DNA of 64,000 nt from Nemertoderma westbladi (GCA_032718475.1 JAUCBJ010006976.1:1-64000); one strand, 5' to 3'; shown: positions 5,801-64,000, counted from the stretch's first letter. Notes: generated by a model not told the origin, from the sequence alone. Translations and numbers: made by a program.

Positions 5801-5880
5801 TACACACCGCCAACAGATAAACACTCCACACCGCCAACTGATAAACCCTCCACACCGCCAACAGATAAACACTCCACATC
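5801..5880 (+). repeat. 27-bp in-frame tandem triplication inside the GIY-YIG region
   Basis: HRQQINTP / HRQLINPP / HRQQINTP in ORF 5490-5996. Confidence 0.8.
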
Positions 5881-18973: not shown

Positions 18974-19357
18974 ATGACGAATTTAACGTCATCATTTAGT
19001 ACCGAGGTAGTCTACACGGGGGATGAGGATTCCTTCCCGGCGGTTGTCTACTCGGGTACCGGTAGTCCATCCAGCTCGGCGAACAGCGACGAGGCAGCTA
19101 ACCAATCACTGATGTCGCCGAGAGTGTCTCATCTTGCGAGCTCCATATACAAAGAGTTTGAGAGAATTATCACAGATTACCACGAGGACTCGATAAAGAC
19201 GTTGATGCCTCTTGTGGTCTCATTGTTAGAGACTTTGGATCAATCGGTCACTGATGGGGATGATAGGGAGGTTGAGAACGATCTTCTGAAGGAAGACAAC
19301 GAACAGCTAGTTACTCAGTACGAGAGAGAGAAACAGTTCAGGAAGTTGGCAGAACAG
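18974..19357 (+). CDS. MAPK8IP3: JIP3/JIP4 (sunday driver/UNC-16) first coding exon, RH1 domain
   Basis: MSPRVSHLASSIYKEFERII..LMPLVVSLLETLD..LLKEDNEQLVTQYEREK matches the JIP3/4 N-terminus; donor CAG|GTACCG at 19358, phase 0. Confidence 0.95.
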
Positions 19358-20256: not shown

Positions 20257-20377
20257 AAAATGATTCAGGATGAAGATCTTTTCGAACAGGAACGACGGGA
20301 GATGATGGAGAGAATCGATTCTCTGGAGAGCAACACGAGGAATCTCGATGCTAAACTCAAGAATTACGTGGAACAAG
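20257..20377 (+). CDS. MAPK8IP3: JIP3/JIP4 coding exon 2 (121 nt)
   Basis: Acceptor ttattgtctag|, translation KMIQDEDLFEQERREMMERIDSLESNTRNLDAKLKNYVEQ, donor AAG|GTATGA; matches JIP3 KFIEFED..LELKAKNYADQ. Confidence 0.93.
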
Positions 20378-20554
20378 GTATGAGGGAGCCGTTATGGATG
20401 GGGATTTAGCGAAACACAAGTGGGGTGTCGTGCGGCAGAACTGTAAGCCATTTCAACGAACAGTTAATACAGCCATAGAATGATTACAACAGTTCGCCGT
20501 TCAGTTCAGGCGGGAGACCCACAACTAACAATCTGTAACTCTTATTGTTTTTAG

Positions 20555-20625
20555 TTTCACGATTTGAAGATCGGGAACACGATATGAAGAAAGATTATCA
20601 GACGTTGAATACAAGGCACACTGAA
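20555..20625 (+). CDS. MAPK8IP3: JIP3/JIP4 coding exon 3 (71 nt)
   Basis: Branch-like ACTAAC at about 20524, acceptor ttgtttttag|, translation (V)SRFEDREHDMKKDYQTLNTRHTE, donor GAA|GTGAGT; matches JIP3 SRLEERE.EMKKEY..L..RHTE. Confidence 0.93.
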
Positions 20626-23600
20626 GTGAGTAAAAGTTACCGTAATAAATAGCCGACACACTGAAGTGAGTAAAAGTTACCGTAATAAATAGCCGACACA
20701 CTGAAGTGAGTAAAAGTTACCGTAATAAATAGCCGACACACTGAAGTGAGTAAAAGTTACCGTAATAAATAGCCGACACACTGAAGTGAGTAAAAGTTAC
20801 CGTAATAAATAGCCGACACACTGAAGTGAGTAAAAGTTACCGTAATAAATAGCCGACACACTGAAGTGAGTAAAAGTTACCGTAATAAATAGCCGACACA
20901 CTGAAGTGAGTAAAAGTTACCGTAATAAATAGCCGACACACTGAAGTGAGTAAAAGTTACCGTAATAAATAGCCGACACACTGAAGTGAGTAAAAGTTAC
21001 CGTAATAAATAGCCGACACACTGAAGTGAGTAAAAGTTACCGTAATAAATAGCCGACACACTGAAGTGAGTAAAAGTTACCGTAATAAATAGCCGACACA
21101 CTGAAGTGAGTAAAAGTTACCGTAATAAATAGCCGACACACTGAAGTGAGTAAAAGTTACCGTAATAAATAGCCGACACACTGAAGTGAGTAAAAGTTAC
21201 CGTAATAAATAGCCGACACACTGAAGTGAGTAAAAGTTACCGTAATAAATAGCCGACACACTGAAGTGAGTAAAAGTTACCGTAATAAATAGCCGACACA
21301 CTGAAGTGAGTAAAAGTTACCGTAATAAATAGCCGACACACTGAAGTGAGTAAAAGTTACCGTAATAAATAGCCGACACACTGAAGTGAGTAAAAGTTAC
21401 CGTAATAAATAGCCGACACACTGAAGTGAGTAAAAGTTACCGTAATAAATAGCCGACACACTGAAGTGAGTAAAAGTTACCGTAATAAATAGCCGACACA
21501 CTGAAGTGAGTAAAAGTTACCGTAATAAATAGCCGACACACTGAAGTGAGTAAAAGTTACCGTAATAAATAGCCGACACACTGAAGTGAGTAAAAGTTAC
21601 CGTAATAAATAGCCGACACACTGAAGTGAGTAAAAGTTACCGTAATAAATAGCCGACACACTGAAGTGAGTAAAAGTTACCGTAATAAATAGCCGGCACA
21701 CTGAAGTGAGTAAAAGTTACAGGAATAAATAGCCGACACACTGAAGTGAGTAAAAGTTACAGGAATAAATAGCCGACACACTGAAGTGAGTAAAAGTTAC
21801 AGGAATAAATAGCCGACACACTGAAGTGAGTAAAAGTTACAGGAATAAATAGCCGACACACTGAAGTGAGTAAAAGTTACAGGAATAAATAGCCGACACA
21901 CTGAAGTGAGTAAAAGTTACAGGAATAAATAGCCGACACACTGAAGTGAGTAAAAGTTACAGGAATAAATAGCCGACACACTGAAGTGAGTAAAAGTTAC
22001 AGGAATAAATAGCCGACACACTGAAGTGAGTAAAAGTTACAGGAATAAATAGCCGACACACTGAAGTGAGTAAAAGTTACAGGAATAAATAGCCGACACA
22101 CTGAAGTGAGTAAAAGTTACCGTAATAAATAGCCGACACACTGAAGTGAGTAAAAGTTACCGTAATAAATAGCCGACACACTGAAGTGAGTAAAAGTTAC
22201 AGGAATAAATAGCCGACACACTGAAGTGAGTAAAAGTTACCGTAATAAATAGCCGACACACTGAAGTGAGTAAAAGTTACCGTAATAAATAGCCGACACA
22301 CTGAAGTGAGTAAAAGTTACAGGAATAAATAGCCGACACACTGAAGTGAGTAAAAGTTACAGGAATAAATAGCCGACACACTGAAGTGAGTAAAAGTTAC
22401 AGGAATAAATAGCCGACACACTGAAGTGAGTAAAAGTTACAGGAATAAATAGCCGACACACTGAAGTGAGTAAAAGTTACAGGAATAAATAGCCGACACA
22501 CTGAAGTGAGTAAAAGTTACAGGAATAAATAGCCGACACACTGAAGTGAGTAAAAGTTACAGGAATAAATAGCCGACACACTGAAGTGAGTAAAAGTTAC
22601 AGGAATAAATAGCCGACACACTGAAGTGAGTAAAAGTTACAGGAATAAATAGCCGACACACTGAAGTGAGTAAAAGTTACAGGAATAAATAGCCGACACA
22701 CTGAAGTGAGTAAAAGTTACCGTAATAAATAGCCGACACACTGAAGTGAGTAAAAGTTACCGTAATAAATAGCCGACACACTGAAGTGAGTAAAAGTTAC
22801 AGGAATAAATAGCCGACACACTGAAGTGAGTAAAAGTTACCGTAATAAATAGCCGACACACTGAAGTGAGTAAAAGTTACCGTAATAAATAGCCGACACA
22901 CTGAAGTGAGTAAAAGTTACCGTAATAAATAGCCGACACACTGAAGTGAGTAAAAGTTACCGTAATAAATAGCCGACACACTGAAGTGAGTAAAAGTTAC
23001 AGGAATAAATAGCCGGCACACTGAAGTGAGTAAAAGTTACAGGAATAAATAGCCGACACACTGAAGTGAGTAAAAGTTACAGGAATAAATAGCCGACACA
23101 CTGAAGTGAGTAAAAGTTACAGGAATAAATAGCCGACACACTGGAGTGAGTAAAAGTCACCGTAATAAAGAGCCGACACACTGAAGTGAGTAAAAGTCAC
23201 CGTAATAAAGAGCCGACACACTGAAGTGAGTAAAAGTTACAGGAATAAATAGCCGACACACTGAAGTGAGTAAAAGTTACAGGAATAAATAGCCGACACA
23301 CTGAAGTGAGTAAAAGTTACAGGAATAAATAGCCGACACACTGAAGTGAGTAAAAGTTACAGGAATAAATAGCCGACACACTGAAGTGAGTAAAAGTTAC
23401 CGTAATAAATAGCCGACACACTGAAGTGAGTAAAAGTTACAGGAATAAATAGCCGGCACACTGAAGTGAGTAAAAGTTACAGGAATAAATAGCCGGCACA
23501 CTGAAGTGAGTAAAAGTTACAGGAATAAATAGCCGACACACTGAAGTGAGTAAAAGTTACCGTAATAAATAGCCGACACACTGAAGTGAGTAAAAGTTAC

Positions 23601-26600
23601 AGGAATAAATAGCCGGCACACTGAAGTGAGTAAAAGTTACAGGAATAAATAGCCGGCACACTGAAGTGAGTAAAAGTTACCGTAATAAATAGCCGACACA
23701 CTGAAGTGAGTAAAAGTTACCGTAATAAATAGCCGACACACTGAAGTGAGTAAAAGTTACAGGAATAAATAGCCGACACACTGAAGTGAGTAAAAGTTAC
23801 CGTAATAAATAGCCGACACACTGAAGTGAGTAAAAGTCACCGTAATAAAGAGCCGACACACTGAAGTGAGTAAAAGTTACAGGAATAAATAGCCGACACA
23901 CTGAAGTGAGTAAAAGTTACAGGAATAAATAGCCGACACACTGAAGTGAGTAAAAGTTACAGGAATAAATAGCCGACACACTGAAGTGAGTAAAAGTTAC
24001 AGGAATAAATAGCCGACACACTGAAGTGAGTAAAAGTTACAGGAATAAATAGCCGACACACTGAAGTGAGTAAAAGTTACAGGAATAAATAGCCGACACA
24101 CTGAAGTGAGTAAAAGTTACAGGAATAAATAGCCGACACACTGAAGTGAGTAAAAGTTACAGGAATAAATAGCCGACACACTGAAGTGAGTAAAAGTTAC
24201 AGGAATAAATAGCCGACACACTGAAGTGAGTAAAAGTTACAGGAATAAATAGCCGACACACTGAAGTGAGTAAAAGTTACAGGAATAAATAGCCGACACA
24301 CTGAAGTGAGTAAAAGTTACAGGAATAAATAGCCGACACACTGAGGTGAGTAAAAGTTACCGTAATAAATAGCCGACACACTGGAGTGAGTAAAAGTTAC
24401 CGTAATAAATAGCCGACACACTGAAGTGAGTAAAAGTTACCGTAATAAATAGCCGACACACTGAAGTGAGTAAAAGTTACAGGAATAAATAGCCGACACA
24501 CTGAAGTGAGTAAAAGTTACCGTAATAAATAGCCGACACACTGAAGTGAGTAAAAGTTACAGGAATAAATAGCCGACACACTGAAGTGAGTAAAAGTTAC
24601 AGGAATAAATAGCCGACACACTGAAGTGAGTAAAAGTTACATGAATAAATAGCCGACACACTGAAGTGAGTAAAAGTTACAGGAATAAATAGCCGACACA
24701 CTGAAGTGAGTAAAAGTTACAGGAATAAATAGCCGACACACTGAAGTGAGTAAAAGTTACAGGAATAAATAGCCGACACACTGAAGTGAGTAAAAGTTAC
24801 CGTAATAAATAGCCGACACACTGAAGTGAGTAAAAGTTACAGGAATAAATAGCCGACACACTGAAGTGAGTAAAAGTTACAGGAATAAATAGCCGACACA
24901 CTGAAGTGAGTAAAAGTTACAGGAATAAATAGCCGACACACTGAAGTGAGTAAAAGTTACAGGAATAAATAGCCGACACACTGAAGTGAGTAAAAGTTAC
25001 AGGAATAAATAGCCGACACACTGAGGTGAGTAAAAGTTACCGTAATAAATAGCCGACACACTGGAGTGAGTAAAAGTTACCGTAATAAATAGCCGACACA
25101 CTGAAGTGAGTAAAAGTTACCGTAATAAATAGCCGACACACTGAAGTGAGTAAAAGTTACCGTAATAAATAGCCGACACACTGAAGTGAGTAAAAGTTAC
25201 CGTAATAAATAGCCGACACACTGAAGTGAGTAAAAGTTACAGGAATAAATAGCCGACACACTGAAGTGAGTAAAAGTTACCGTAATAAATAGCCGACACA
25301 CTGAAGTGAGTAAAAGTTACAGGAATAAATAGCCGACACACTGAAGTGAGTAAAAGTTACAGGAATAAATAGCCGACACACTGAAGTGAGTAAAAGTTAC
25401 AGGAATAAATAGCCGACACACTGAAGTGAGTAAAAGTTACAGGAATAAATAGCCGACACACTGAAGTGAGTAAAAGTTACAGGAATAAATAGCCGACACA
25501 CTGAAATGAGTAAAAGTTACAGGAATAAATAGCCGACACACTGAAGTGAGTAAAAGTTGCCGTAATAAATAGCCGACACACTGAAGTGAGTAAAAGTTAC
25601 CGTAATAAATAGCCGACACACTGAAGTGAGTAAAAGTTACCGTAATGAATAGCCGACACACTGAAGTGAGTAAAAGTTACAGGAATAAATAGCCGACACA
25701 CTGAAGTGAGTAAAAGTTACCGGAATAAATAGCCGACACACTGAAGTGAGTAAAAGTTACAGGAATAAATAGCCGACACACTGAAGTGAGTAAAAGTTAC
25801 AGGAATAAATAGCCGACACACTGAAGTGAGTAAAAGTTACAGGAATAAATAGCCGGCACACTGAAGTGAGTAAAAGTTACCGTAATAAATAGCCGACACA
25901 CTGAAGTGAGTAAAAGTTACCGTAATAAATAGCCGACACACTGAAGTGAGTAAAAGTTACAGGAATAAATAGCCGGCACACTGAAGTGAGTAAAAGTTAC
26001 AGGAATAAATAGCCGGCACACTGAAGTGAGTAAAAGTTACAGGAATAAATAGCCGACACACTGAAGTGAGTAAAAGTTACCGTAATAAATAGCCGACACA
26101 CTGAAGTGAGTAAAAGTTACCGTAATAAATAGCCGACACACTGAAGTGAGTAAAAGTTACCGTAATAAATAGCCGACACACTGAAGTGAGTAAAAGTTGC
26201 CGTAATAAATAGCCGACACACTGAAGTGAGTAAAAGTTACCGTAATAAATAGCCGACACACTGAAGTGAGTAAAAGTGACAGGAATAAATAGCCGACACA
26301 CTGAAGTGAGTAAAAGTTACCGTAATAAATAGCCGACACACTGAAGTGAGTAAAAGTTACCGTAATAAATAGCCGACACACTGAAGTGAGTAAAAGTTAC
26401 CGGAATAAATAGCCGGCACACTGAAGTGAGTAAAAGTTACCGGAATAAATAGCCGGCACACTGAAGTGAGTAAAAGTTACCGGAATAAATAGCCGGCACA
26501 CTGAAGTGAGTAAAAGTTACAGGAATAAATAGCCGACACACTGAAGTGAGTAAAAGTTACCGTAATAAATAGCCGACACACTGAAGTGAGTAAAAGTTAC

Positions 26601-29600
26601 AGGAATAAATAGCCGACACACTGAAGTGAGTAAAAGTTACAGGAATAAATAGCCGACACACTGAAGTGAGTAAAAGTTACCGTAATAAATAGCCGACACA
26701 CTGAAGTGAGTAAAAGTTACAGGAATAAATAGCTGACACACTGAAGTGAGTAAAAGTTACAGGAATAAATAGCCGACACACTGAAGTGAGTAAAAGTTAC
26801 CGGAATAAATAGCCGGCACACTGAAGTGAGTAAAAGTTACAGGAATAAATAGCCGACACACTGAAGTGAGTAAAAGTTACCGTAATAAATAGCCGACACA
26901 CTGAAGTGAGTAAAAGTTACAGGAATAAATAGCCGACACACTGAAGTGAGTAAAAGTTACCGTAATAAATAGCCGACACACTGAAGTGAGTAAAAGTTAC
27001 CGTAATAAATAGCCGACACACTGAAGTGAGTAAAAGTGACAGGAATAAATAGCCGACACACTGAAGTGAGTAAAAGTTACCGTAATAAATAGCCGACACA
27101 CTGAAGTGAGTAAAAGTTACCGTAATAAATAGCCGACACACTGAAGTGAGTAAAAGTTACCGTAATAAATAGCCGACACACTGAAGTGAGTAAAAGTTAC
27201 CGTAATAAATAGCCGACACACTGAAGTGAGTAAAAGTGACAGGAATAAATAGCCGACACACTGAAGTGAGTAAAAGTGACAGGAATAAATAGCCGACACA
27301 CTGAAGTGAGTAAAAGTTACCGTAATAAATAGCCGACACACTGAAGTGAGTAAAAGTTACCGTAATAAATAGCCGACACACTGAAGTGAGTAAAAGTTAC
27401 CGTAATAAATAGCCGACACACTGAAGTGAGTAAAAGTTACCGTAATAAATAGCCGACACACTGAAGTGAGTAAAAGTGACAGGAATAAATAGCCGACACA
27501 CTGAAGTGAGTAAAAGTTACCGGAATAAATAGCCGACACACTGAAGTGAGTAAAAGTTACCGGAATAAATAGCCGGCACACTGAAGTGAGTAAAAGTTAC
27601 AGGAATAAATAGCCGACACACTGAAGTGAGTAAAAGTTACCGTAATAAATAGCCGACACACTGAAGTGAGTAAAAGTTACAGGAATAAATAGCTGACACA
27701 CTGAAGTGAGTAAAAGTTACAGGAATAAATAGCCGACACACTGAAGTGAGTAAAAGTTACCGTAATAAATAGCCGACACACTGAAGTGAGTAAAAGTTAC
27801 CGTAATAAATAGCCGACACACTGAAGTGAGTAAAAGTTACCGGAATAAATAGCCGGCACACTGAAGTGAGTAAAAGTTACAGGAATAAATAGCCGACACA
27901 CTGAAGTGAGTAAAAGTTACCGTAATAAATAGCCGACACACTGAAGTGAGTAAAAGTTACAGGAATAAATAGCTGACACACTGAAGTGAGTAAAAGTTAC
28001 AGGAATAAATAGCCGACACACTGAAGTGAGTAAAAGTTACCGTAATAAATAGCCGACACACTGAAGTGAGTAAAAGTTACAGGAATAAATAGCTGACACA
28101 CTGAAGTGAGTAAAAGTTACAGGAATAAATAGCCGACACACTGAAGTGAGTAAAAGTTACCGTAATAAATAGCCGACACACTGAAGTGAGTAAAAGTTAC
28201 AGGAATAAATAGCCGACACACTGAAGTGAGTAAAAGTTACAGGAATAAATAGCCGACACACTGAAGTGAGTAAAAGTTACAGGAATAAATAGCCGACACA
28301 CTGAAGTGAGTAAAAGTTACAGGAATAAATAGCCGACACACTGAAGTGAGTAAAAGTTACAGGAATAAATAGCCGACACACTGAAGTGAGTAAAAGTTAC
28401 AGGAATAAATAGCCGACACACTGAAGTGAGTAAAAGTTACAGGAATAAATAGCCGACACACTGAAGTGAGTAAAAGTTACCGTAATAAATAGCCGACACA
28501 CTGAAGTGAGTAAAAGTTACCGTAATAAATAGCCGACACACTGAAGTGAGTAAAAGTTACCGGAATAAATAGCCGGCACACTGAAGTGAGTAAAAGTTAC
28601 AGGAATAAATAGCCGGCACACTGAAGTGAGTAAAAGTTACAGGAATAAATAGCCGGCACACTGAAGTGAGTAAGAGTTACCGTAATAAATAGCCGACACA
28701 CTGAAGTGAGTAAAAGTGACAGGAATAAATAGCCGACACACTGAAGTGAGTAAAAGTTGCCGTAATAAATAGCCGACACACTGAAGTGAGTAAAAGTTAC
28801 CGTAATAAATAGCCGACACACTGAAGTGAGTAAAAGTTACCGGAATAAATAGCCGGCACACTGAAGTGAGTAAAAGTTACAGGAATAAATAGCCGGCACA
28901 CTGAAGTGAGTAAAAGTTGCCGTAATAAATAGCCGACACACTGAAGTGAGTAAAAGTGACAGGAATAAATAGCCGACACACTGAAGTGAGTAAAAGTTGC
29001 CGTAATAAATAGCCGACACACTGAAGTGAGTAAAAGTTACCGTAATAAATAGCCGACACACTGAAGTGAGTAAAAGTTACCGGAATAAATAGCCGACACA
29101 CTGAAGTGAGTAAAAGTTACAGGAATAAATAGCCGGCACACTGAAGTGAGTAAAAGTTACAGGAATAAATAGCCGGCACACTGAAGTGAGTAAAAGTTGC
29201 CGTAATAAATAGCCGACACACTGAAGTGAGTAAAAGTTACCGTAATAAATAGCCGACACACTGAAGTGAGTAAAAGTGACAGGAATAAATAGCCGACACA
29301 CTGAAGTGAGTAAAAGTTACCGTAATAAATAGCCGACACACTGAAGTGAGTAAAAGTTACCGTAATAAATAGCCGACACACTGAAGTGAGTAAAAGTTAC
29401 CGGAATAAATAGCCGGCACACTGAAGTGAGTAAAAGTTACAGGAATAAATAGCCGGCACACTGAAGTGAGTAAAAGTTGCCGTAATAAATAGCCGACACA
29501 CTGAAGTGAGTAAAAGTTACAGGAATAAATAGCTGACACACTGAAGTGAGTAAAGGTTACCGTAATAAATAGCCGACACACTGAAGTGAGTAAAAGTTAC

Positions 29601-32600
29601 CGTAATAAATAGCCGACACACTGAAGTGAGTAAAAGTTACAGGAATAAATAGCTGACACACTGAAGTGAGTAAAAGTTACAGGAATAAATAGCCGACACA
29701 CTGAAGTGAGTAAAAGTTACCGTAATAAATAGCCGACACACTGAAGTGAGTAAAAGTTACAGGAATAAATAGCTGACACACTGAAGTGAGTAAAAGTTAC
29801 AGGAATAAATAGCCGACACACTGAAGTGAGTAAAAGTTACCGTAATAAATAGCCGACACACTGAAGTGAGTAAAAGTTACAGGAATAAATAGCCGACACA
29901 CTGAAGTGAGTAAAAGTTACAGGAATAAATAGCCGACACACTGAAGTGAGTAAAAGTTACAGGAATAAATAGCCGACACACTGAAGTGAGTAAAAGTTAC
30001 AGGAATAAATAGCCGACACACTGAAGTGAGTAAAAGTTACAGGAATAAATAGCCGACACACTGAAGTGAGTAAAAGTTACAGGAATAAATAGCCGACACA
30101 CTGAAGTGAGTAAAAGTTACAGGAATAAATAGCCGACACACTGAAGTGAGTAAAAGTTACAGGAATAAATAGCCGACACACTGAAGTGAGTAAAAGTTAC
30201 AGGAATAAATAGCCGACACACTGAAGTGAGTAAAAGTTACCGTAATAAATAGCCGACACACTGAAGTGAGTAAAAGTTACAGGAATAAATAGCCGACACA
30301 CTGAAGTGAGTAAAAGTTACAGGAATAAATAGCCGACACACTGAAGTGAGTAAAAGTTACCGGAATAAATAGCCGACAAACTGAAGTGAGTAAAAGTTGC
30401 CGTAATAAATAGCCGACACACTGAAGTGAGTAAAAGTTACCGTAATAAATAGCCGACACACTGAAGTGAGTAAAAGTTACCGTAATAAATAGCCGACACA
30501 CTGAAGTGAGTAAAAGTTGCCGTAATAAATAGCCGACACACTGAAGTGAGTAAAAGTTACCGTAATAAATAGCCGACACACTGAAGTGAGTAAAAGTTAC
30601 CGTAATAAATAGCCGACACACTGAAGTGAGTAAAAGTTACCGTAATAAATAGCCGACACACTGAAGTGAGTAAAAGTTACCGTAATAAATAGCCGGCACA
30701 CTGAAGTGAGTAAAAGTTACAGGAATAAATAGCCGACACACTGAAGTGAGTAAAAGTTACAGGAATAAATAGCCGACACACTGAAGTGAGTAAAAGTTAC
30801 AGGAATAAATAGCCGACACACTGAAGTGAGTAAAAGTTACAGGAATAAATAGCCGACACACTGAAGTGAGTAAAAGTTACCGTAATAAATAGCCGACACA
30901 CTGAAGTGAGTAAAAGTTACAGGAATAAATAGCCGACACACTGAAGTGAGTAAAAGTTACAGGAATAAATAGCCGACACACTGAAGTGAGTAAAAGTTAC
31001 CGGAATAAATAGCCGACACACTGAAGTGAGTAAAAGTTACAGGAATAAATAGCCGACACACTGAAGTGAGTAAAAGTTACCGTAATAAATAGCCGACACA
31101 CTGAAGTGAGTAAAAGTTACCGTAATAAATAGCCGACACACTGAAGTGAGTAAAAGTTGCCGTAATAAATAGCCGACACACTGAAGTGAGTAAAAGTTAC
31201 CGTAATAAATAGCCGACACACTGAAGTGAGTAAAAGTTACAGGAATAAATAGCCGACACACTGAAGTGAGTAAAAGTTACAGGAATAAATAGCCGACACA
31301 CTGAAGTGAGTAAAAGTTACCGTAATAAATAGCCGACACACTGAAGTGAGTAAAAGTTACCGTAATAAATAGCCGACACACTGAAGTGAGTAAAAGTTAC
31401 AGGAATAAATAGCCGACACACTGAAGTGAGTAAAAGTTACAGGAATAAATAGCCGACACACTGAAGTGAGTAAAAGTTACAGGAATAAATAGCCGACACA
31501 CTGAAGTGAGTAAAAGTTACCGTAATAAATAGCCGACACACTGAAGTGAGTAAAAGTTACCGTAATAAATAGCCGACACACTGAAGTGAGTAAAAGTTAC
31601 CGTAATAAATAGCCGACACACTGAAGTGAGTAAAAGTTACCGTAATAAATAGCCGACACACTGAAGTGAGTAAAAGTTACCGTAATAAATAGCCGACACA
31701 CTGAAGTGAGTAAAAGTTACCGTAATAAATAGCCGACACACTGAAGTGAGTAAAAGTTACCGTAATAAATAGCCGACACACTGAAGTGAGTAAAAGTTAC
31801 CGTAATAAATAGCCGACACACTGAAGTGAGTAAAAGTTACAGGAATAAATAGCCGGCACACTGAAGTGAGTAAAAGTTACCGGAATAAATAGCCGACACA
31901 CTGAGGTGAGTAAAGGTTACCGTAATAAATAGCCGACACACTGAAGTGAGTAAAAGTTACCGTAATAAATAGCCGACACACTGAAGTGAGTAAAAGTTAC
32001 CGTAATAAATAGCCGACACACTGGAGTGAGTAAAAGTTACCGGAATAAATAGCCGACACACTGAATGAAGTGAGTAAAAGTTACCGTAATAAATAGCCGA
32101 CGCACTGAAGTGAGTAAAAGTTACCGTAATAAATAGCCGACACACTGAAGTGAGTAAAGGTTACCGTAATAAATAGCCGACACACTGAAGTGAGTAAAAG
32201 TTACCGTAATAAATAGCCGACACACTGAAGTGAGTAAAAGTTACCGTAATAAATAGCCGACACACTGGAGTGAGTAAAAGTTACCGTAATAAATAGCCGA
32301 CACACTGAAGTGAGTAAAAGTTACAGGAATAAATAGCCGACACACTGAAGTGAGTAAAAGTTACAGGAATAAATAGCCGACACACTGAAGTGAGTAAAAG
32401 TTACAGGAATAAATAGCCGACACACTGAAGTGAGTAAAAGTTACAGGAATAAATAGCCGACACACTGAAGTGAGTAAAAGTTACAGGAATAAATAGCCGA
32501 CACACTGAAGTGAGTAAAAGTTACAGGAATAAATAGCCGACACACTGAAGTGAGTAAAAGTTACCGTAATAAATAGCCGACACACTGAAGTGAGTAAAAG

Positions 32601-50600: not shown

Positions 50601-53600
50601 AAATAGCCGACACACTGAAGTGAGTAAAAGTTACCGTAATAAATAGCCGGCACACTGAAGTGAGTAAAAGTTACAGGAATAAATAGCCGGCACACTGAAG
50701 TGAGTAAAAGTTACCGTAATAAATAGCCGACACACTGAAGTGAGTAAAAGTTACAGGAATAAATAGCCGACACACTGAAGTGAGTAAAAATTACCGGAAT
50801 AAATAGCCGGCACACTGAAGTGAGTAAAAGTTACAGGAATAAATAGCCGACACACTGAAGTGAGTAAAAGTTACCGTAATAAATAGCCGACACACTGAAG
50901 TGAGTAAAAGTTACAGAAATAAATAGCCGACACACTGAAGTGAGTAAAAGTTACCGGAATAAATAACCGACACACTGAAGTGAGTAAAAGTTACAGGAAT
51001 AAATAGCCGACACACTGAAGTGAGTAAAAGTTACAGGAATAAATAGCCGACACACTGAAGTGAGTAAAAGTTACCGTAATAAATAGCCGACACACTGAAG
51101 TGAATAAAAGTTACAGGAATAAATAGCCGACACACTGAAGTGAGTAAAAGTTACCGTAATAAATAGCCGACACACTGAAGTGAGTAAAAGTTACAGGAAT
51201 AAATAGCCGACACACTGAAGTGAGTAAAAGTTACCGGAATAAATAACCGACACACTGAAGTGAGTAAAAGTTACAGGAATAAATAGCCGACACACTGAAG
51301 TGAGTAAAAGTTACAGGAATAAATAGCCGACACACTGAAGTGAGTAAAAGTTACCGGAATAAATAACCGACACACTGAAGTGAGTAAAAGTTACAGGAAT
51401 AAATAGCCGACACACTGAAGTGAGTAAAAGTTACAGGAATAAATAGCCGACACACTGAAGTGAGTAAAAGTTACAGGAATAAATAGCCGACACACTGAAG
51501 TGAGTAAAAGTTACAGGAATAAATAGCCGACACACTGAAGTGAGTAAAAGTTACAGGAATAAATAGCCGACACACTGAAGTGAGTAAAAGTTACCGTAAT
51601 AAATAGCCGACACACTGAAGTGAGTAAAAGTTACAGGAATAAATAGCCGGCACACTGAAGTGAGTAAAAGTTACAGGAATAAATAGCCGACACACTGAAG
51701 TGAGTAAAAGTTACCGTAATAAATAGCCGACACACTGGAGTGAGTAAAAGTTACCGGAATAAATAGCCGATACACTGAAGTGAGTAAAAGTTACAGGAAT
51801 AAATAGCCGGCACACTGAAGTGAGTAAAAGTTACCGTAATGAATAGCCGACACACTGAAGTGAGTAAAAGTTACAGGAATAAATAGCCGACACACTGAAG
51901 TGAGTAAAAGTTACAGGAATAAATAGCCGACACACTGAAGTGAGTAAAAGTTACAGGAATAAATAGCCGGCACACTGAAGTGAGTAAGAGTTACCGTAAT
52001 AAATAGCCGACACACTGAAGTGAGTAAAAGTTACCGGAATAAATAGCCGACACACTGAAGTGAGTAAAAGTTACAGGAATAAATAGCCGGCACACTGAAG
52101 TGAGTAAGAGTTACCGTAATAAATAGCCGACACACTGAAGTGAGTAAAAGTTACCGTAATAAATAGCCGGCACACTGAAGTGAGTAAAAGTTACAGGAAT
52201 AAATAGCCGGCACACTGAAGTGAGTAAAAGTTTCCGTAATAAATAGCCGGCACACTGAAGTGAGTAAAAGTTACCGTAATAAATAGCCGGCACACTGAAG
52301 TGAGTAAAAGTTACAGGAATAAATAGCCGACACACTGAAGTGAGTAAAAGTTACCGGAATAAATAACCGACACACTGAAGTGAGTAAAAGTTACAGGAAT
52401 AAATAGTCGACACACTGAAGTGAGTAAAAGTTACCGTAATAAATAGCCGACACACTGAAGTGAGTAAAAGTTACCGTAATAAATAGCCGGCACACTGAAG
52501 TGAGTAAAAGTTACAGGAATAAATAGCCGGCACACTGAAGTGAGTAAAAGTTACAGGAATAAATAGCCGACACACTGAAGTGAGTAAAAGTTACAGGAAT
52601 AAATAGCCGACACACTGAAGTGAGTAAAAGTTACCGTAATAAATAGCCGGCACACTGAAGTGAGTAAAAGTTACAGGAATAAATAGCCGGCACACTGAAG
52701 TGAGTAAGAGTTACCGTAATAAATAGCCGACACACTGAAGTGAGTAAAAGTTACCGTAATAAATAGCCGGTACACTGAAGTGAGTAAAAGTTACAGGAAT
52801 AAATAGCCGACACACTGAAGTGAGTAAAAGTTACCGTAATAAATAGCCGGCACACTGAAGTGAGTAAAAGTTACCGTAATAAATAGCCGACACACTGAAG
52901 TGAGTAAAAGTTACCGGAATAAATAGCCGACACACTGGAGTGAGTAAAAGTTACCGGAATAAATAACCGACACACTGAAGTGAGTAAAAGTTACAGGAAT
53001 AAATAGCTGACACACTGTAGTGAGTAAAAGTTACCGTAATAAATAGCCGACACACTGAAGTGAGTAAAAGTTACAGGAATAAATAGCCGACACACTGAAG
53101 TGAGTAAAAGTTACCGTAATAAATAGCCGACACACTGTAGTGAGTAAAAGTTACCGTAATAAATAGCCGACACACTGAAGTGAGTAAAAGTTACAGGAAT
53201 AAATAGCCGACACACTGAAGTGAGTAAAAGTTACAGGAATAAATAGCCGACACACTGAAGTGAGTAAAAGTTACCGTAATAAATAGCCGGCACACTGAAG
53301 TGAGTAAAAGTTACCGTAATAAATAGCCGACACACTGAAGTGAGTAAAAGTTACAGAAATAAATAGCCGACACACTGAAGTGAGTAAAAGTTACAGGAAT
53401 AAATAGCTGACACACTGTAGTGAGTAAAAGTTACCGTAATAAATAGCCGACACACTGAAGTGAGTAAAAGTTACAGGAATAAATAGCCGACACACTGAAG
53501 TGAGTAAAAGTTACCGTAATAAATAGCCGGCACACTGAAGTGAGTAAAAGTTACCGTAATAAATAGCCGACACACTGAAGTGAGTAAAAGTTACAGGAAT

Positions 53601-56600
53601 AAATAGCCGACACACTGAAGTGAGTAAAAATTACCGGAATAAATAGCCGGCACACTGAAGTGAGTAAAAGTTACAGGAATAAATAGCCGACACACTGAAG
53701 TGAGTAAAAGTTACCGTAATAAATAGCCGACACACTGAAGTGAGTAAAAGTTACAGAAATAAATAGCCGACACACTGAAGTGAGTAAAAGTTACCGGAAT
53801 AAATAACCGACACACTGAAGTGAGTAAAAGTTACAGGAATAAATAGCCGACACACTGAAGTGAGTAAAAGTTACAGGAATAAATAGCCGACACACTGAAG
53901 TGAGTAAAAGTTACCGTAATAAATAGCCGACACACTGAAGTGAATAAAAGTTACAGGAATAAATAGCCGACACACTGAAGTGAGTAAAAGTTACCGTAAT
54001 AAATAGCCGACACACTGAAGTGAGTAAAAGTTACAGGAATAAATAGCCGACACACTGAAGTGAGTAAAAGTTACCGGAATAAATAACCGACACACTGAAG
54101 TGAGTAAAAGTTACAGGAATAAATAGCCGACACACTGAAGTGAGTAAAAGTTACAGGAATAAATAGCCGACACACTGAAGTGAGTAAAAGTTACCGGAAT
54201 AAATAACCGACACACTGAAGTGAGTAAAAGTTACAGGAATAAATAGCCGACACACTGAAGTGAGTAAAAGTTACAGGAATAAATAGCCGACACACTGAAG
54301 TGAGTAAAAGTTACAGGAATAAATAGCCGACACACTGAAGTGAGTAAAAGTTACAGGAATAAATAGCCGACACACTGAAGTGAGTAAAAGTTACAGGAAT
54401 AAATAGCCGACACACTGAAGTGAGTAAAAGTTACCGTAATAAATAGCCGACACACTGAAGTGAGTAAAAGTTACAGGAATAAATAGCCGGCACACTGAAG
54501 TGAGTAAAAGTTACAGGAATAAATAGCCGACACACTGAAGTGAGTAAAAGTTACCGTAATAAATAGCCGACACACTGGAGTGAGTAAAAGTTACCGGAAT
54601 AAATAGCCGATACACTGAAGTGAGTAAAAGTTACAGGAATAAATAGCCGGCACACTGAAGTGAGTAAAAGTTACCGTAATGAATAGCCGACACACTGAAG
54701 TGAGTAAAAGTTACAGGAATAAATAGCCGACACACTGAAGTGAGTAAAAGTTACAGGAATAAATAGCCGACACACTGAAGTGAGTAAAAGTTACAGGAAT
54801 AAATAGCCGGCACACTGAAGTGAGTAAGAGTTACCGTAATAAATAGCCGACACACTGAAGTGAGTAAAAGTTACCGGAATAAATAGCCGACACACTGAAG
54901 TGAGTAAAAGTTACAGGAATAAATAGCCGGCACACTGAAGTGAGTAAGAGTTACCGTAATAAATAGCCGACACACTGAAGTGAGTAAAAGTTACCGTAAT
55001 AAATAGCCGGCACACTGAAGTGAGTAAAAGTTACAGGAATAAATAGCCGGCACACTGAAGTGAGTAAAAGTTTCCGTAATAAATAGCCGGCACACTGAAG
55101 TGAGTAAAAGTTACCGTAATAAATAGCCGGCACACTGAAGTGAGTAAAAGTTACAGGAATAAATAGCCGACACACTGAAGTGAGTAAAAGTTACCGGAAT
55201 AAATAACCGACACACTGAAGTGAGTAAAAGTTACAGGAATAAATAGTCGACACACTGAAGTGAGTAAAAGTTACCGTAATAAATAGCCGACACACTGAAG
55301 TGAGTAAAAGTTACCGTAATAAATAGCCGGCACACTGAAGTGAGTAAAAGTTACAGGAATAAATAGCCGGCACACTGAAGTGAGTAAAAGTTACAGGAAT
55401 AAATAGCCGACACACTGAAGTGAGTAAAAGTTACAGGAATAAATAGCCGACACACTGAAGTGAGTAAAAGTTACCGTAATAAATAGCCGGCACACTGAAG
55501 TGAGTAAAAGTTACAGGAATAAATAGCCGGCACACTGAAGTGAGTAAGAGTTACCGTAATAAATAGCCGACACACTGAAGTGAGTAAAAGTTACCGTAAT
55601 AAATAGCCGGTACACTGAAGTGAGTAAAAGTTACAGGAATAAATAGCCGACACACTGAAGTGAGTAAAAGTTACCGTAATAAATAGCCGGCACACTGAAG
55701 TGAGTAAAAGTTACCGTAATAAATAGCCGACACACTGAAGTGAGTAAAAGTTACCGGAATAAATAGCCGACACACTGGAGTGAGTAAAAGTTACCGGAAT
55801 AAATAACCGACACACTGAAGTGAGTAAAAGTTACAGGAATAAATAGCTGACACACTGTAGTGAGTAAAAGTTACCGTAATAAATAGCCGACACACTGAAG
55901 TGAGTAAAAGTTACAGGAATAAATAGCCGACACACTGAAGTGAGTAAAAGTTACCGTAATAAATAGCCGACACACTGTAGTGAGTAAAAGTTACCGTAAT
56001 AAATAGCCGACACACTGAAGTGAGTAAAAGTTACAGGAATAAATAGCCGACACACTGAAGTGAGTAAAAGTTACAGGAATAAATAGCCGACACACTGAAG
56101 TGAGTAAAAGTTACCGTAATAAATAGCCGGCACACTGAAGTGAGTAAAAGTTACCGTAATAAATAGCCGACACACTGAAGTGAGTAAAAGTTACAGGAAT
56201 AAATAGCCGACACACTGAAGTGAGTAAAAGTTACCGTAATAAATAGCCGACACACTGAAGTGAGTAAAAGTTACCGGAATAAATAGCCGACACACTGGAG
56301 TGAGTAAAAGTTACCGGAATAAATAACCGACACACTGAAGTGAGTAAAAGTTACAGGAATAAATAGCCGACACACTGAAGTGAGTAAAAGTTACCGGAAT
56401 AAATAACCGACACACTGAAGTGAGTAAAAGTTACCGGAATAAATAGCCGACACACTGAAGTGAGTAAAAGTTACAGGAATAAATAGCCGACACACTGAAG
56501 TGAGTAAAAGTTACAGGAATAAATAGCCGACACACTGAAGTGAGTAAAAGTTACCGTAATAAATAGCCGACATACTGAAGTGAGTAAAAGTTACAGGAAT

Positions 56601-59600
56601 AAATAGCTGACACACTGAAGTGAGTAAAAGTTACCGTAATAAATAGCCGACACACTGAAGTGAGTAAAAGTTACCGGAATAAATAGCTGACACACTGGAG
56701 TGAGTAAAAGTTACCGTAATAAATAGCCGACACACTGAAGTGAGTAAAAGTTACCGGAATAAATAGCCGACAAACTGAAGTGAGTAAAAGTTACAGGAAT
56801 AAATAGCCGACACACTGAAGTGAGTAAAAGTTACCGTAATAAATAGCCGACACACTGAAGTGAGTAAAAGTTACCGGAATAAATAACCGACACACTGAAG
56901 TGAGTAAAAGTTACCGTAATAAATAGCCGACACACTGAAGTGAGTAAAAGTTACCGGAATAAATAGCCGACACACTGGAGTGAGTAAAAGTTACCGGAAT
57001 AAATAACCGACACACTGAAGTGAGTAAAAGTTACAGGAATAAATAGCCGACACACTGAAGTGAGTAAAAGTTACCGTAATAAATAGCCGACACACTGAAG
57101 TGAGTAAAAGTTACAGGAATAAATAGCCGACACACTGAAGTGAGTAAAAGTTACCGTAATAAATAGCCGACACACTGGAGTGAGTAAAAGTTACCGGAAT
57201 AAATAACCGACACACTGAAGTGAGTAAAAGTTACAGGAATAAATAGCCGACACACTGAAGTGAGTAAAAGTTACCGGAATAAATAACCGACACACTGAAG
57301 TGAGTAAAAGTTACCGGAATAAATAGCCGACACACTGAAGTGAGTAAAAGTTACCGGAATAAATAGCCGACACACTGGAGTGAGTAAAAGTTACCGGAAT
57401 AAATAACCGACACACTGAAGTGAGTAAAAGTTACAGGAATAAATAGCCGAAACACTGAAGTGAGTAAAAGTTACCGGAATAAATAACCGACACACTGAAG
57501 TGAGTAAAAGTTACCGGAATAAATAGCCGACACACTGAAGTGAGTAAAAGTTACAGGAATAAATAGCCGACACACTGAAGTGAGTAAAAGTTACAGGAAT
57601 AAATAGCCGACACACTGAAGTGAGTAAAAGTTACCGTAATAAATAGCCGACACACTGAAGTGAGTAAAAGTTACAGGAATAAATAGCCGACACACTGAAG
57701 TGAGTAAGAGTTACCGTAATAAATAGCCGACACACTGAAGTGAGTAAAAGTTACCGGAATAAATAGCTGACACACTGGAGTGAGTAAAAGTTACCGTAAT
57801 AAATAGCCGACACACTGAAGTGAGTAAAAGTTACCGGAATAAATAGCCGACAAACTGAAGTGAGTAAAAGTTACAGGAATAAATAGCCGACACACTGAAG
57901 TGAGTAAAAGTTACCGGAATAAATAGCCGACACACTGGAGTGAGTAAAAGTTACCGGAATAAATAACCGACACACTGAAGTGAGTAAAAGTTACAGGAAT
58001 AAATAGCCGACACACTGAAGTGAGTAAAAGTTACCGGAATAAATAACCGACACACTGAAGTGAGTAAAAGTTACCGGAATAAATAGCCGACACACTGAAG
58101 TGAGTAAAAGTTACAGGAATAAATAGCCGACACACTGAAGTGAGTAAAAGTTACAGGAATAAATAGCCGACACACTGAAGTGAGTAAAAGTTACCGTAAT
58201 AAATAGCCGACACACTGAAGTGAGTAAAAGTTACAGGAATAAATAGCCGACACACTGAAGTGAGTAAAAGTTACCGTAATAAATAGCCGACACACTGAAG
58301 TGAGTAAAAGTTACCGGAATAAATAGCTGACACACTGGAGTGAGTAAAAGTTACCGTAATAAATAGCCGACACACTGAAGTGAGTAAAAGTTACCGGAAT
58401 AAATAGCCGACAAACTGAAGTGAGTAAAAGTTACAGGAATAAATAGCCGACACACTGAAGTGAGTAAAAGTTACCGTAATAAATAGCCGACACACTGAAG
58501 TGAGTAAAAGTTACCGTAATAAATAGCCGACACACTGAAGTGAGTAAAAGTTACAGGAATAAATAGCCGACACACTGAAGTGAGTAAAAGTTACCGTAAT
58601 AAATAGCCGACACACTGAAGTGAGTAAAAGTTACCGTAATAAATAGCCGACACACTGAAGTGAGTAAAAGTTACCGGAATAAATAGCCGACACACTGAAG
58701 TGAGTAAAAGTTACCGTAATAAATAGCCGACACACTGAAGTGAGTAAAAGTTACCGTAATAAATAGCCGACACACTGAAGTGAGTAAAAGTTACCGGAAT
58801 AAATAGCCGACACACTGAAGTGAGTAAAAGTTACCGTAATAAATAGCCGACACACTGAAGTGAGTAAAAGTTACCGGAATAAATAGCCGGCACACTGAAG
58901 TGAGTAAAAGTTACCGTAATAAATAGCCGACACACTGAAGTGAGTAAAAGTTACCGTAATAAATAGCCGACACACTGAAGTGAGTAAAAGTTACCGTAAT
59001 AAATAGCCGACACACTGAAGTGAGTAAAAGTTACCGTAATAAATAGCCGACACACTGAAGTGAGTAAAAGTTACAGGAATAAATAGCCGACACACTGAAG
59101 TGAGTAAAAGTTACCGTAATAAATAGCCGACACACTGAAGTGAGTAAAAGTTACCGTAATAAATAGCCGACACACTGAAGTGAGTAAAAGTTACAGGAAT
59201 AAATAGCCGACACACTGAAGTGAGTAAAAGTTACCGTAATAAATAGCCGACACACTGAAGTGAGTAAAAGTTACCGTAATAAATAGCCGACACACTGAAG
59301 TGAGTAAAAGTTACCGTAATAAATAGCCGACACACTGAAGTGAGTAAAAGTTACCGTAATAAATAGCCGACACACTGAAGTGAGTAAAAGTTACCGTAAT
59401 AAATAGCCGACACACTGAAGTGAGTAAAAGTTACCGTAATAAATAGCCGACACACTGATGAAGTGAGTAAAAGTTACCGGAATAAATAGCCGACACACTG
59501 AAGTGAGTAAAAGTTACCGTAATAAATAGCCGACACACTGAAGTGAGTAAAAGTTACCGTAATAAATAGCCGACACACTGAAGTGAGTAAAAGTTACCGT

Positions 59601-62600
59601 AATAAATAGCCGACACACTGAAGTGAGTAAAAGTTACCGTAATAAATAGCCGACACACTGAAGTGAGTAAAAGTTACAGGAATAAATAGCCGACACACTG
59701 AAGTGAGTAAAAGTTACAGGAATAAATAGCCGACACACTGAAGTGAGTAAAAGTTACCGTAATAAATAGCCGACACACTGAAGTGAGTAAAAGTTACCGT
59801 AATAAATAGCCGACACACTGAAGTGAGTAAAAGTTACAGGAATAAATAGCCGACACACTGAAGTGAGTAAAAGTTACCGTAATAAATAGCCGACACACTG
59901 AAGTGAGTAAAAGTTACCGTAATAAATAGCCGACACACTGAAGTGAGTAAAAGTTACCGTAATAAATAGCCGACACACTGAAGTGAGTAAAAGTTACCGT
60001 AATAAATAGCCGACACACTGAAGTGAGTAAAAGTTACCGTAATAAATAGCCGACACACTGAAGTGAGTAAAAGTTACCGTAATAAATAGCCGACACACTG
60101 AAGTGAGTAAAAGTTACCGTAATAAATAGCCGACACACTGAAGTGAGTAAAAGTTACAGGAATAAATAGCCGACACACTGAAGTGAGTAAAAGTTACAGG
60201 AATAAATAGCCGACACACTGAAGTGAGTAAAAGTTACCGTAATAAATAGCCGACACACTGAAGTGAGTAAAAGTTACCGTAATAAATAGCCGACACACTG
60301 AAGTGAGTAAAAGTTACCGTAATAAATAGCCGACACACTGAAGTGAGTAAAAGTTACAGGAATAAATAGCCGACACACTGAAGTGAGTAAAAGTTACCGT
60401 AATAAATAGCCGACACACTGGAGTGAGTAAAAGTTACCGGAATAAATAGCCGATACACTGAAGTGAGTAAAAGTTACAGGAATAAATAGCCGGCACACTG
60501 AAGTGAGTAAAAGTTACCGTAATGAATAGCCGACACACTGAAGTGAGTAAAAGTTACAGGAATAAATAGCCGACACACTGAAGTGAGTAAAAGTTACAGG
60601 AATAAATAGCCGACACACTGAAGTGAGTAAAAGTTACAGGAATAAATAGCCGGCACACTGAAGTGAGTAAGAGTTACCGTAATAAATAGCCGACACACTG
60701 AAGTGAGTAAAAGTTACCGGAATAAATAGCCGACACACTGAAGTGAGTAAAAGTTACAGGAATAAATAGCCGGCACACTGAAGTGAGTAAGAGTTACCGT
60801 AATAAATAGCCGACACACTGAAGTGAGTAAAAGTTACCGTAATAAATAGCCGGCACACTGAAGTGAGTAAAAGTTACAGGAATAAATAGCCGGCACACTG
60901 AAGTGAGTAAAAGTTACCATAATAAATAGCCGGCACACTGAAGTGAGTAAAAGTTACCGTAATAAATAGCCGGCACACTGAAGTGAGTAAAAGTTACAGG
61001 AATAAATAGCCGACACACTGAAGTGAGTAAAAGTTACCGGAATAAATAACCGACACACTGAAGTGAGTAAAAGTTACAGGAATAAATAGTCGACACACTG
61101 AAGTGAGTAAAAGTTACCGTAATAAATAGCCGACACACTGAAGTGAGTAAAAGTTACCGTAATAAATAGCCGGCACACTGAAGTGAGTAAAAGTTACAGG
61201 AATAAATAGCCGGCACACTGAAGTGAGTAAAAGTTACAGGAATAAATAGCCGACACACTGAAGTGAGTAAAAGTTACAGGAATAAATAGCCGACACACTG
61301 AAGTGAGTAAAAGTTACCGTAATAAATAGCCGGCACACTGAAGTGAGTAAAAGTTACAGGAATAAATAGCCGGCACACTGAAGTGAGTAAGAGTTACCGT
61401 AATAAATAGCCGACACACTGAAGTGAGTAAAAGTTACCGTAATAAATAGCCGACACACTGAAGAAGTGAGTAAAAGTTACCGTAATAAATAGCCGACACA
61501 CTGAAGTGAGTAAAAGTTACCGGAATAAATAGCTGACACACTGAAGTGAGTAAAAGTTACCGTAATAAATAGCCGACACACTGAAGTGAGTAAAAGTTAC
61601 CGTAATAAATAGCCGACACACTGGAGTGAGTAAAAGTTACCGTAATAAATAGCCGACACACTGAAGTGAGTAAAAGTTACCGTAATAAATAGCCGACACA
61701 CTGGAGTGAGTAAAAGTTACCGGAATAAATAGCCGACACACTGAATGAAGTGAGTAAAAGTTACCGTAATAAATAGCCGACGCACTGAAGTGAGTAAAAG
61801 TTACCGTAATAAATAGCCGACACACTGAAGTGAGTAAAAGTTACCGTAATAAATAGCCGACACACTGAAGTGAGTAAAAGTTACCGGAATAAATAGCCGA
61901 CACACTGAATGAAGTGAGTAAAAGTTACCGTAATAAATAGCCGACGCACTGAAGTGAGTAAAAGTTACCGTAATAAATAGCCGACACACTGAAGTGAGTA
62001 AAAGTTACAGGAATAAATAGCCGACACACTGAAGTGAGTAAAAGTTACAGGAATAAATAGCCGACACACTGAAGTGAGTAAAAGTTACAGGAATAAATAG
62101 CCGACACACTGAAGTGAGTAAAAGTTACCGTAATAAATAGCCGGCACACTGAAGTGAGTAAAAGTTACCGTAATAAATAGCCGACACACTGAAGTGAGTA
62201 AAAGTTACCGTAATAAATAGCCGACACACTGAAGTGAGTAAAAGTTACAGGAATAAATAGCCGACACACTGAAGTGAGTAAAAGTTACCGTAATAAATAG
62301 CCGACACACTGAAGTGAGTAAAAGTTACAGGAATAAATAGCCGACACACTGAAGTGAGTAAAAGTTACCGTAATAAATAGCCGACACACTGAAGTGAGTA
62401 AAAGTTACAGGAATAAATAGCCGACACACTGAAGTGAGTAAAAGTTACCGGAATAAATAACCGACACACTGAAGTGAGTAAAAGTTACAGGAATAAATAG
62501 CCGACACACTGAAGTGAGTAAAAGTTACAGGAATAAATAGCCGACACACTGAAGTGAGTAAAAGTTACCGTAATAAATAGCCGACACACTGAAGTGAGTA

Positions 62601-64000
62601 AAAGTTACAGGAATAAATAGCCGACACACTGAAGTGAGTAAAAGTTACCGTAATAAATAGCCGACACACTGCAGTGAGTAAAAGTTACCGGAATAAATAG
62701 CCGACACACTGAAGTGAGTAAAAGTTACCGGAATAAATAGCCGACACACTGAAGTGAGTAAAAGTTACCGTAATAAATAGCCGACACACTGAAGTGAGTA
62801 AAAGTTACCGTAATAAATAGCCGACACACTGAAGTGAGTAAAAGTTACCGTAATAAATAGCCGACACACTGAAGTGAGTAAAAGTTACCGGAATAAATAG
62901 CCGACACACTGAAGTGAGTAAAAGTTACCGGAATAAATAGCCGACACACTGAAGTGAGTAAAGGTTACCGTAATAAATAGCCGACACACTGAAGTGAGTA
63001 AAAGTTACCGTAATAAATAGCCGACACACTGAAGTGAGTAAAAGTTACCGTAATAAATAGCCGACACACTGAAGTGAGTAAAAGTTACCGGAATAAATAG
63101 CCGACACACTGAAGTGAGTAAAAGTTACCGTAATAAATAGCCGACACACTGAAGTGAGTAAAAGTTACCGTAATAAATAGCCGACACACTGAAGTGAGTA
63201 AAAGTTACAGGAATAAATAGCCGACACACTGAAGTGAGTAAAATTTACCGTAATAAATAGCCGACACACTGAAGTGAGTAAAAGTTACCGGAATAAATAG
63301 CCGACACACTGAAGTGAGTAAAAGTTACCGTAATAAATAGCCGACACACATGAAGTGAGTAAAAGTTACCGTAATAAATAGCCGACACACTGAAGTGAGT
63401 AAAAGTTACAGGAATAAATAGCCGACACACTGAAGTGAGTAAAAGTTACCGTAATAAATAGCCGACACACTGAAGTGAGTAAAAGTTACAGGAATAAATA
63501 GCCGACACACTGAAGTGAGTAAAAGTTACCGTAATAAATAGCCGACACACTGAAGTGAGTAAAAGTTACAGGAATAAATAGCCGACACACTGAAGTGAGT
63601 AAAAGTTACCGGAATAAATAACCGACACACTGAAGTGAGTAAAAGTTACAGGAATAAATAGCCGACACACTGAAGTGAGTAAAAGTTACAGGAATAAATA
63701 GCCGACACACTGAAGTGAGTAAAAGTTACCGTAATAAATAGCCGACACACTGAAGTGAGTAAAAGTTACAGGAATAAATAGCCGACACACTGAAGTGAGT
63801 AAAAATTACCGGAATAAATAGCCGGCACACTGAAGTGAGTAAAAGTTACAGGAATAAATAGCCGACACACTGAAGTGAGTAAAAGTTACAGGAATAAATA
63901 GCCAACACACTGAAGTGAGTAAAAGTTACAGGAATAAATAGCCGACACACTGAAGTGAGTAAAAGTTACAGGAATAAATAGCCGACACACTGAATTGAGT
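20617..64000 (+). repeat. Intronic 40-bp satellite array (>43 kb, ~1,080 units, runs off the window) derived from the JIP3 exon 3 donor junction
   Basis: Unit CACACTGAA|GTGAGTAAAAGTTAC(CGT/AGG/CGG)AATAAATAGCCG(A/G); the first unit overlaps the last 9 nt of exon 3. Confidence 0.98.

Follow-up and report, generated by a model that had tools for sequence, protein, structure and literature searches.

Human F7 carries in intron 7 a 37-bp variable number tandem repeat of 5-9 copies whose first unit lies over the exon-intron boundary; only the first donor is used, and the downstream sites, although stronger, reportedly do not compete with it (Borensztajn et al. 2006, PMC1557585). Similar repeats of 10-25 copies, cited in the same paper, occur in CBS, 6-16, LMNB2 and PDGF, and CBS and 6-16 are described there as also using two pseudo-sites. 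In amphioxus, the 'mirages' of the Adh3 and globin genes are exon-intron boundary minisatellites with units of 10-160 bp, reported to be spliced normally and to evolve in concert (PMC3087553). Here we describe an array of 40-nucleotide (nt) units in a 64,000-nt stretch of DNA from Nemertoderma westbladi (GCA_032718475.1 JAUCBJ010006976.1:1-64000, the window), which starts at the junction of exon 3 and intron 3 of a predicted gene of the JIP3/JIP4 family. By its anatomy and the use of its first donor it is an exon-intron junction minisatellite of the F7 intron 7 and mirage class. As in F7, the first unit spans the boundary, the repeated donors are identical and the first one is used. The array differs from the human examples in having at least 1,083 copies, against 5-9 and 10-25, and in carrying a poly(A) hexamer in each unit, where the account of the F7 unit mentions none (PMC1557585). 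With the mirages it shares the form of a minisatellite-like boundary duplication in an invertebrate; unlike the globin mirages, which have 3-6 units and cluster ends that are not homogenised (PMC3087553), it is satellite-sized and most uniform in the 26 units nearest the exon.

The array and the two motifs of its first unit are as follows.

20617..64000, plus strand: head-to-tail array of the 40-nt exon 3/intron 3 junction unit (Tandem Repeats Finder, unit cutting, joints in DNA runs)
20626..20631, plus strand: authentic exon-3 donor GTGAGT, positions 10-15 of unit 1 (exit point of a spliced contig, record 25 of run X4)
20644..20652, plus strand: AATAAA of unit 1 with the in-frame TAG (sequence reading of unit 1)

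Run on the 64-kb window, Tandem Repeats Finder returns a single array of period 40 at 20617-64000, with 1083.4 copies and 96% matches. It runs off the end of the window, so the copy number and the size of 43 kb are lower bounds (at least 1,083 units). Cutting at the donor motif yields 1,083 complete units, of which 1,068 are exactly 40 nt long and 15 are lengthened by insertions of 1-4 bases. Positions 1-9 of the unit are the last three codons of exon 3 (H-T-E), positions 10-15 the real exon-3 donor GTGAGT, and positions 16-40 the next 25 bases of the intron. The first unit straddles the exon-intron boundary, the array starting at 20617 and exon 3 ending at 20625. An earlier, sequence-only reading of this DNA had recognised the period-40 array but began it at 20626; the true start is 9 bases earlier, inside exon 3.

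That reading held that each unit pairs a U1 site with a poly(A) signal, and the motifs themselves are where it put them. GTGAGT is intact in 1,076 of the 1,083 units and its GT is kept in 1,081; the seven variants include two GTAAGT, nearer the consensus, and units that weaken the donor number 5 of 1,083. The 9-mer of the real donor, GAA/GTGAGT, is present in 1,023 units, and GAG/GTGAGT, a better exonic match, in eight. AATAAA (positions 28-33) is intact in 1,078 units, the exceptions being the rare forms already reported, four AATGAA and one AATAGA. No unit (0/1,083) has both motifs broken. The donor lies 18 nt upstream of the start of AATAAA, and the donor of the next unit begins 16 nt after its end. 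CACA does follow, in the next unit, at a spacing of 8-11 nt and not the 8-12 nt first given. In unit 1 AATAAA occupies 20644-20649 and an in-frame TAG follows directly at 20650-20652 on the plus strand.

The array is no artefact of assembly. This is ruled out by the tandem joint, a 40-base step back from 20656 to 20617 seen in contigs of three DNA runs (X1, X2 and X3, from two samples and two studies), together with nested duplications of internal blocks at lags of 58, 71, 116, 174 and 424 units, the longest of 66 units at lag 71. Units with broken motifs have been copied with their blocks (AATGAA at units 780, 851 and 997, GTGAAT at 762 and 833). A contig of X2 with a different intron-2 haplotype, marked by four substitutions and a 7-base gap there, also enters unit 1. 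Summed contig depth on the unit (30,952, 87,974 and 1,388, against 19-38 on unique sequence) cannot be read as a copy number, and two runs from a single sample are 60-fold apart; the tandem joint in X1-X3 shows presence only. Odd letters at the junction in X2 (depth 3-24) are possibly errors and were given no weight. The 26 units next to the exon (20617-21656) are identical and form the longest uniform run of the array, the next longest having 12. This is unlike the usual worn edge of an array, and the end next to the exon may have grown recently or have a polarised turnover.

The gene model upstream of the array is as follows.

18974..19357, plus strand: coding exon 1 of a JIP3/JIP4 (MAPK8IP3/SPAG9) family gene, RH1 domain (Pfam RH1, homologs, X4 contig from 19000)
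19358..20256, plus strand: intron 1, 899 nt, GT-AG, with six sense AATAAA (joint skipping 899 in X4, and in X4 only)
20257..20377, plus strand: coding exon 2, 121 nt (X4 contig, open frame)
20378..20554, plus strand: intron 2, 177 nt, GT-AG (X4 joint skipping 177)
20555..20625, plus strand: coding exon 3, 71 nt, phase-0 end after R-H-T-E (open frame, homolog alignment)

The three exons, with GT-AG introns, make 192 codons without a stop; the start ATG of exon 1 is taken from the open frame. Exon 1 encodes a predicted RH1 domain (Pfam E 2e-16) and has 640 homologs at E<=0.001, the named ones being mostly JIP4/SPAG9 and some JIP3. The listed homolog matches, mostly fish and nematodes, are 53-66% identical. 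The RH1 domain, the homologs and the exon frame thus bear out an intron of this gene on the sense strand, and JIP3/JIP4 family is a safe label where JIP3 had been proposed. Of 120 homologs fetched, 110 align as far as the end of exon 3, and RHTE stands there in 105; the last 9 bases of the exon are positions 1-9 of unit 1. Seven of the 110 are predicted proteins that continue after RHTE with unrelated, valine-initial sequence; this would be expected from reading into GT and hints at an old intron position. Much of intron 1 (19490-20200) is a dispersed repeat, with many contigs 90-95% identical to it; in the DNA runs its summed depth is 10-100 times that of unique sequence.

Use of the first donor is seen in run X4. 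Record 25 of this run is a 3,296-nt contig of depth 71.7 that joins exons 1, 2 and 3 at GT..AG and leaves the window at 20629, four letters past exon 3; one letter of this short piece differs, and it would be the first base of the donor. The part of the contig past exon 3 measures about 2.7 kb. Its 255-letter loose end keeps the frame and resembles the next exon of the homologs; against their commonest continuation (82 of 110) seven of nine whole codons match, as read by hand. The assembled transcript, in one run and at the level of contigs, which drop rare forms, uses the first donor and passes to the next exon, since a contig spliced from a later donor would contain unit sequence. Splice joints are absent from X1-X3, and there is therefore no retrocopy in those runs. 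Splicing from a later donor, or read-through, meets the TAG at 20650-20652, and the protein would end after 200 residues, the stop being codon 201. X4 has no cover on the unit past 20629, the last-bin depth of 29.6 being that of the spliced contig alone; a hole in contig cover proves nothing, and this gap is not taken as evidence against polyadenylation in the array.

An origin of the array from the exon 3/intron 3 junction is near certain and is common to all four explanations weighed below. No unit copies occur in window positions 1-20600 on either strand, and the sequence upstream of unit 1 is unlike a unit end. The 'U1 site' of each unit thus descends from the true donor by copying, so that donor and AATAAA were brought together in a single event. 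AATAAA is found in 2.5% of 25-nt windows in the flank and 11% in intron 1, which makes a founder with the hexamer unremarkable. We consider it probable that the array is a by-product of duplication of the junction, in which the donor was copied along, the first donor wins, AATAAA is a passenger lacking its partner element and U1 gives cover to spare; the pairing of donor and AATAAA is likely to be such a by-product and not a purpose-built U1 safeguard. On this explanation the junction would have been tandemly amplified with the real donor carried into each unit, likely growing by unequal exchange and block duplication. AATAAA would likely derive from the original start of the intron and be nearly silent for want of a U/GU-rich downstream element, and U1 on the many donor copies would likely be redundant. 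The choice of the first donor likely follows the 5'-to-3' rule known from human F7. The units with GAG/GTGAGT and the block-copied motif breaks, which have been tolerated, were counted in its favour.

How strong are the signals? A metazoan poly(A) site is described as AAUAAA 10-30 nt before the cut with a U/GU-rich element behind it (PMC2874999). The hexamer is present in 1,078 of 1,083 units and a CA 10-30 nt downstream is marginal, the second CA ending 11 nt after the hexamer. Judged by the composition of the array, and by a rule that is mainly mammalian, the unit holds no U/GU-rich downstream element, as the earlier reading had itself remarked. T makes up 17.5% of the bases 15-55 nt past the array AATAAA, whereas the median for 27 flanking AATAAA is 35%. 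All but nine of the signals (1,069 of 1,078) have at most two T in any downstream 6-mer; in the 43-kb array TTTT, TGTG and GTGT do not occur, and TGTA occurs five times. In intron 1, which is spliced in X4, five of the six sense AATAAA have 37-43% T downstream. Four intron-1 AATAAA are 512-566 nt from the donor of that intron, with one GTGAG-like site, at 19674, upstream of them.

The reported median reach of U1 cover is around 500 nt in flies and around 1,000 nt in mammals (PMC4889658). Some 500 nt corresponds to 12 units, and hence to 12 donor copies, and as the reach of U1 spans 12 or more of these, one U1 site per unit is not needed. The proposed protection of each AATAAA by its own U1 site is thus neither demonstrated nor required: the site is in every unit because the unit copies the exon-3 donor. 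The earlier reading as a whole is partly supported, by the motifs, the gene and the sparing of variants described below.

Several observations weigh against a mere by-product. The 15 insertion units (five distinct forms, 32057-63385) all alter the exon-derived positions 5-9 and leave the spacing of donor and AATAAA unchanged; slippage at GAA/TGAA is the simple reading. X4 is a single run labelled 'DNA?', recognised as RNA solely by its splice joints and from another sample and study than X1-X3, and its animal may or may not carry the array. The arithmetic of 1,078 signals in series is severe. Half read-through needs cleavage of no more than 0.064% per signal; 0.1% would leave 34% of transcripts at full length and 1% only 0.002%. 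'Weak' must therefore mean very weak, and help from U1 is plausible. The cleavage zone of 10-30 nt, moreover, takes in the start of the next donor, 16 nt past AATAAA. U1 bound to a donor downstream is reported to inhibit the poly(A) site of human immunodeficiency virus type 1 (HIV-1), and at an upstream donor that of bovine papillomavirus (PMC2874999), and U1, if bound at the donor of the next unit, would be expected to block cleavage. Hypersensitivity of full-length output to U1 is thus possible.

The variation among units also pulls in this direction. It was counted on the 1,068 exact 40-nt units, with the 15 insertion units excluded, and represents one haplotype. Positions with at least five variant copies number 0 of 12 in the motifs and 16 of 28 elsewhere (Fisher p 0.0005, with a threshold set after seeing the data). 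Seven of the 39 substitution alleles fall in the 12 motif positions, where 11.7 (uniform) or 12.25 (base-matched) are expected (p 0.07-0.08), and motif alleles are rarer, with 1-4 copies each (rank test p 0.006). Variants in the two motifs together are rarer than under a neutral model by base-matched permutation (p 0.004; donor alone 0.045, AATAAA alone 0.040), and the sparing persists when stratified by AT/GC class (p 0.011) and with copies collapsed to distinct contexts (p 0.007). Matching for neighbour context, a check added afterwards, gives p 0.029-0.036 for both motifs, 0.16-0.20 for the donor alone and 0.06-0.08 for AATAAA alone. Among 40 rigid rotations the true motif pair has the lowest score, and so low a score is reached by 3 of 580 window pairs. 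AATAAA is the least variable of the 40 six-base windows, which is unexpected for a hazard that is only tolerated, and GTGAGT is fourth; the donor holds five alleles against 5.85-6.5 expected (p 0.37-0.46). Variation and local GC are positively correlated (rho 0.37, p 0.02 for all positions taken together; rho 0.31, p 0.11 with the motifs excluded). The signal is real but modest, and is seen in a single haplotype. Variant density at the motifs is below that elsewhere, where equal density had been named in advance as the outcome that would speak against a U1 role. The same counts go badly with the suggestion that AATAAA is merely tolerated, because a tolerated hazard should decay and AATAAA is the most invariant stretch of the unit.

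Three rival explanations share the junction origin and differ in what the motifs do. In one, a corrected form of the idea of the sequence-only reading, the AATAAA are live, U1 along the array or at the next donor lets transcription through, output is hypersensitive to U1, and it was the donor within the unit that allowed the array to expand. We regard this as rather unlikely, but as the most probable of the three rivals. It draws on donors that flank AATAAA, 18 nt before its start and 16 nt after its end, on a CA 11 nt past the hexamer and so within the 10-30 nt range, on the rarity of donor-weakening units (5 of 1,083), on the serial hazard of 1,078 signals, and on the co-occurrence of cryptic donors and AATAAA reported for long Drosophila introns (PMC4889658). 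It leaves AATAAA as the least variable 6-mer unexplained, however, and the donors it relies upon show no clear constraint (five alleles where 5.85-6.5 are expected; context-matched depletion p 0.16-0.20). Neither the lack of a U/GU-rich downstream element nor the AATAAA of intron 1, which sit in better context and are spliced through, suits it. A stronger version, that the more than 1,000 live signals, each masked by U1 on flanking donor copies, form a serial amplifier with both motifs under selection, strikes us as quite improbable.

Selection on both motifs is also the premise of a co-opted attenuator, in which low U1 yields a short mRNA ending in the array and encoding a 200-residue fragment with the RH1 domain and coiled coil, with no downstream splice junction to trigger decay. 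Variants are spared in both motifs, AATAAA is followed at once by the in-frame TAG that closes the 200-residue frame, the donor-to-AATAAA spacing is constant in 15 of 15 insertion units, and the first 26 units are identical. The statistics are modest, however, drawn from 39 alleles of one haplotype and weaker with context matching. A switch would need few units and not over 1,000, an early stop is expected in an AT-rich intron, and the X4 contig is a single record over the exon 3 junction; we consider this very improbable. Of similarly low probability is an impaired allele, attenuated or mis-spliced to later donors, with the spliced transcript coming from an animal or allele with a short array or none. 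X4 does differ in sample and study from X1-X3, all later donors lead to the stop at codon 201, pseudo-sites are used in CBS and 6-16 (PMC1557585), and the far end of the array and exon 4 lie outside the window. Against this, the tandem joint is present in all three DNA runs examined, from two samples and two studies, the X2 contig with the second intron-2 haplotype likewise runs into unit 1, and exons 1-3 are intact.

Comparison with other systems places the array further. Telescripting targets are similar in that a donor motif and AAUAAA stand close together in an intron (PMC4889658, PMC2874999), and cryptic donors and AATAAA are reported to co-occur in long introns of Drosophila (PMC4889658). 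The range of telescripting is about 500-1,000 nt and not 40; the unit here has no downstream element, and U1-dependent cleavage is putative. Drosophila Y genes have giant, satellite-filled introns, and splicing defects there are reported to attenuate transcription (PMC11207136, PMC6508621). Polymerase crosses long tandem DNA in both cases; the fly introns are of megabase scale, and these accounts do not describe their repeats as copies of the gene's own donor. Human HSat1A transcripts are described as polyadenylated, with poly(A) signals present (PMC9909926), and Xist Repeat A, as described, has no obvious U1 sites. PMC10078293, PMC12776774 and PMC7544216 offer nothing decisive. A literature search, with most subscription journals outside it, found no comparable array in JIP3, no donor-plus-AATAAA repeat unit and no junction array of this scale.

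Some further properties of the array may be noted. A coding role on the plus strand is excluded by stops in all frames. In three successive units read on the minus strand, the frames link into a stop-poor cycle with one stop per 120 bases, whereas the plus frames stop often; the open cycle is probably due to chance. A 27-nt GT-AG mini-intron per unit was dismissed by eye as too short and without a pyrimidine tract. Three units fold into weak structure (-17.2 kcal/mol over 120 nt, without a shuffle control). AT-to-GC alleles stand at higher copy number than GC-to-AT alleles (median 8 and 2, p 0.011), and A>G is found at 9 of the 17 A positions, whereas T>C is found at one of the seven T positions; GC-biased conversion and a transcription-linked strand asymmetry are possible.

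The window also holds a second RH1-domain exon at 955-1167 on the plus strand, 18 kb upstream and in the same orientation (Pfam E 9.5e-9, 31-33% identical to JIP3/4), which probably belongs to a RILP-like gene or a diverged paralog next to JIP3/4. Two other young minisatellites with 97% matches, of 31 nt x 12 and 67 nt x 3.8 (9067-9441 and 10784-11038), indicate a genome prone to tandem amplification. What we take, by eye, to be a fibrinogen-related-domain-like coding stretch lies at 12360-13050 on the minus strand, and after it a repeat with periods of 63, 96 and 255 at 13183-14805 might be minus-strand coding. Fragments at 1860-2520, 4740-6020, 6540-8600 and 11050-11630, again identified by eye, are presumably from reverse-transcriptase retroelements. 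Two of the copies, at about 6550-7170 and 11050-11630, are nearly identical, and just upstream of exon 1, at 18690-18750, there is a short related end.

Even as a by-product, the array raises the copy number of a known class from tens to more than 1,000, and the first donor seems to be chosen correctly against more than 1,000 identical competitors in a conserved motor-adaptor gene. With its ceiling of 0.064%, the locus offers a sensitive test, made by nature, of what silences cryptic poly(A) signals, the lack of downstream elements or U1. Should silencing depend on U1, the length of the repeat would be a heritable dial on U1 sensitivity. Were the serial amplifier real, a small drop in U1 would switch JIP3/4 output to the 200-residue RH1/coiled-coil fragment, with array length setting the threshold.

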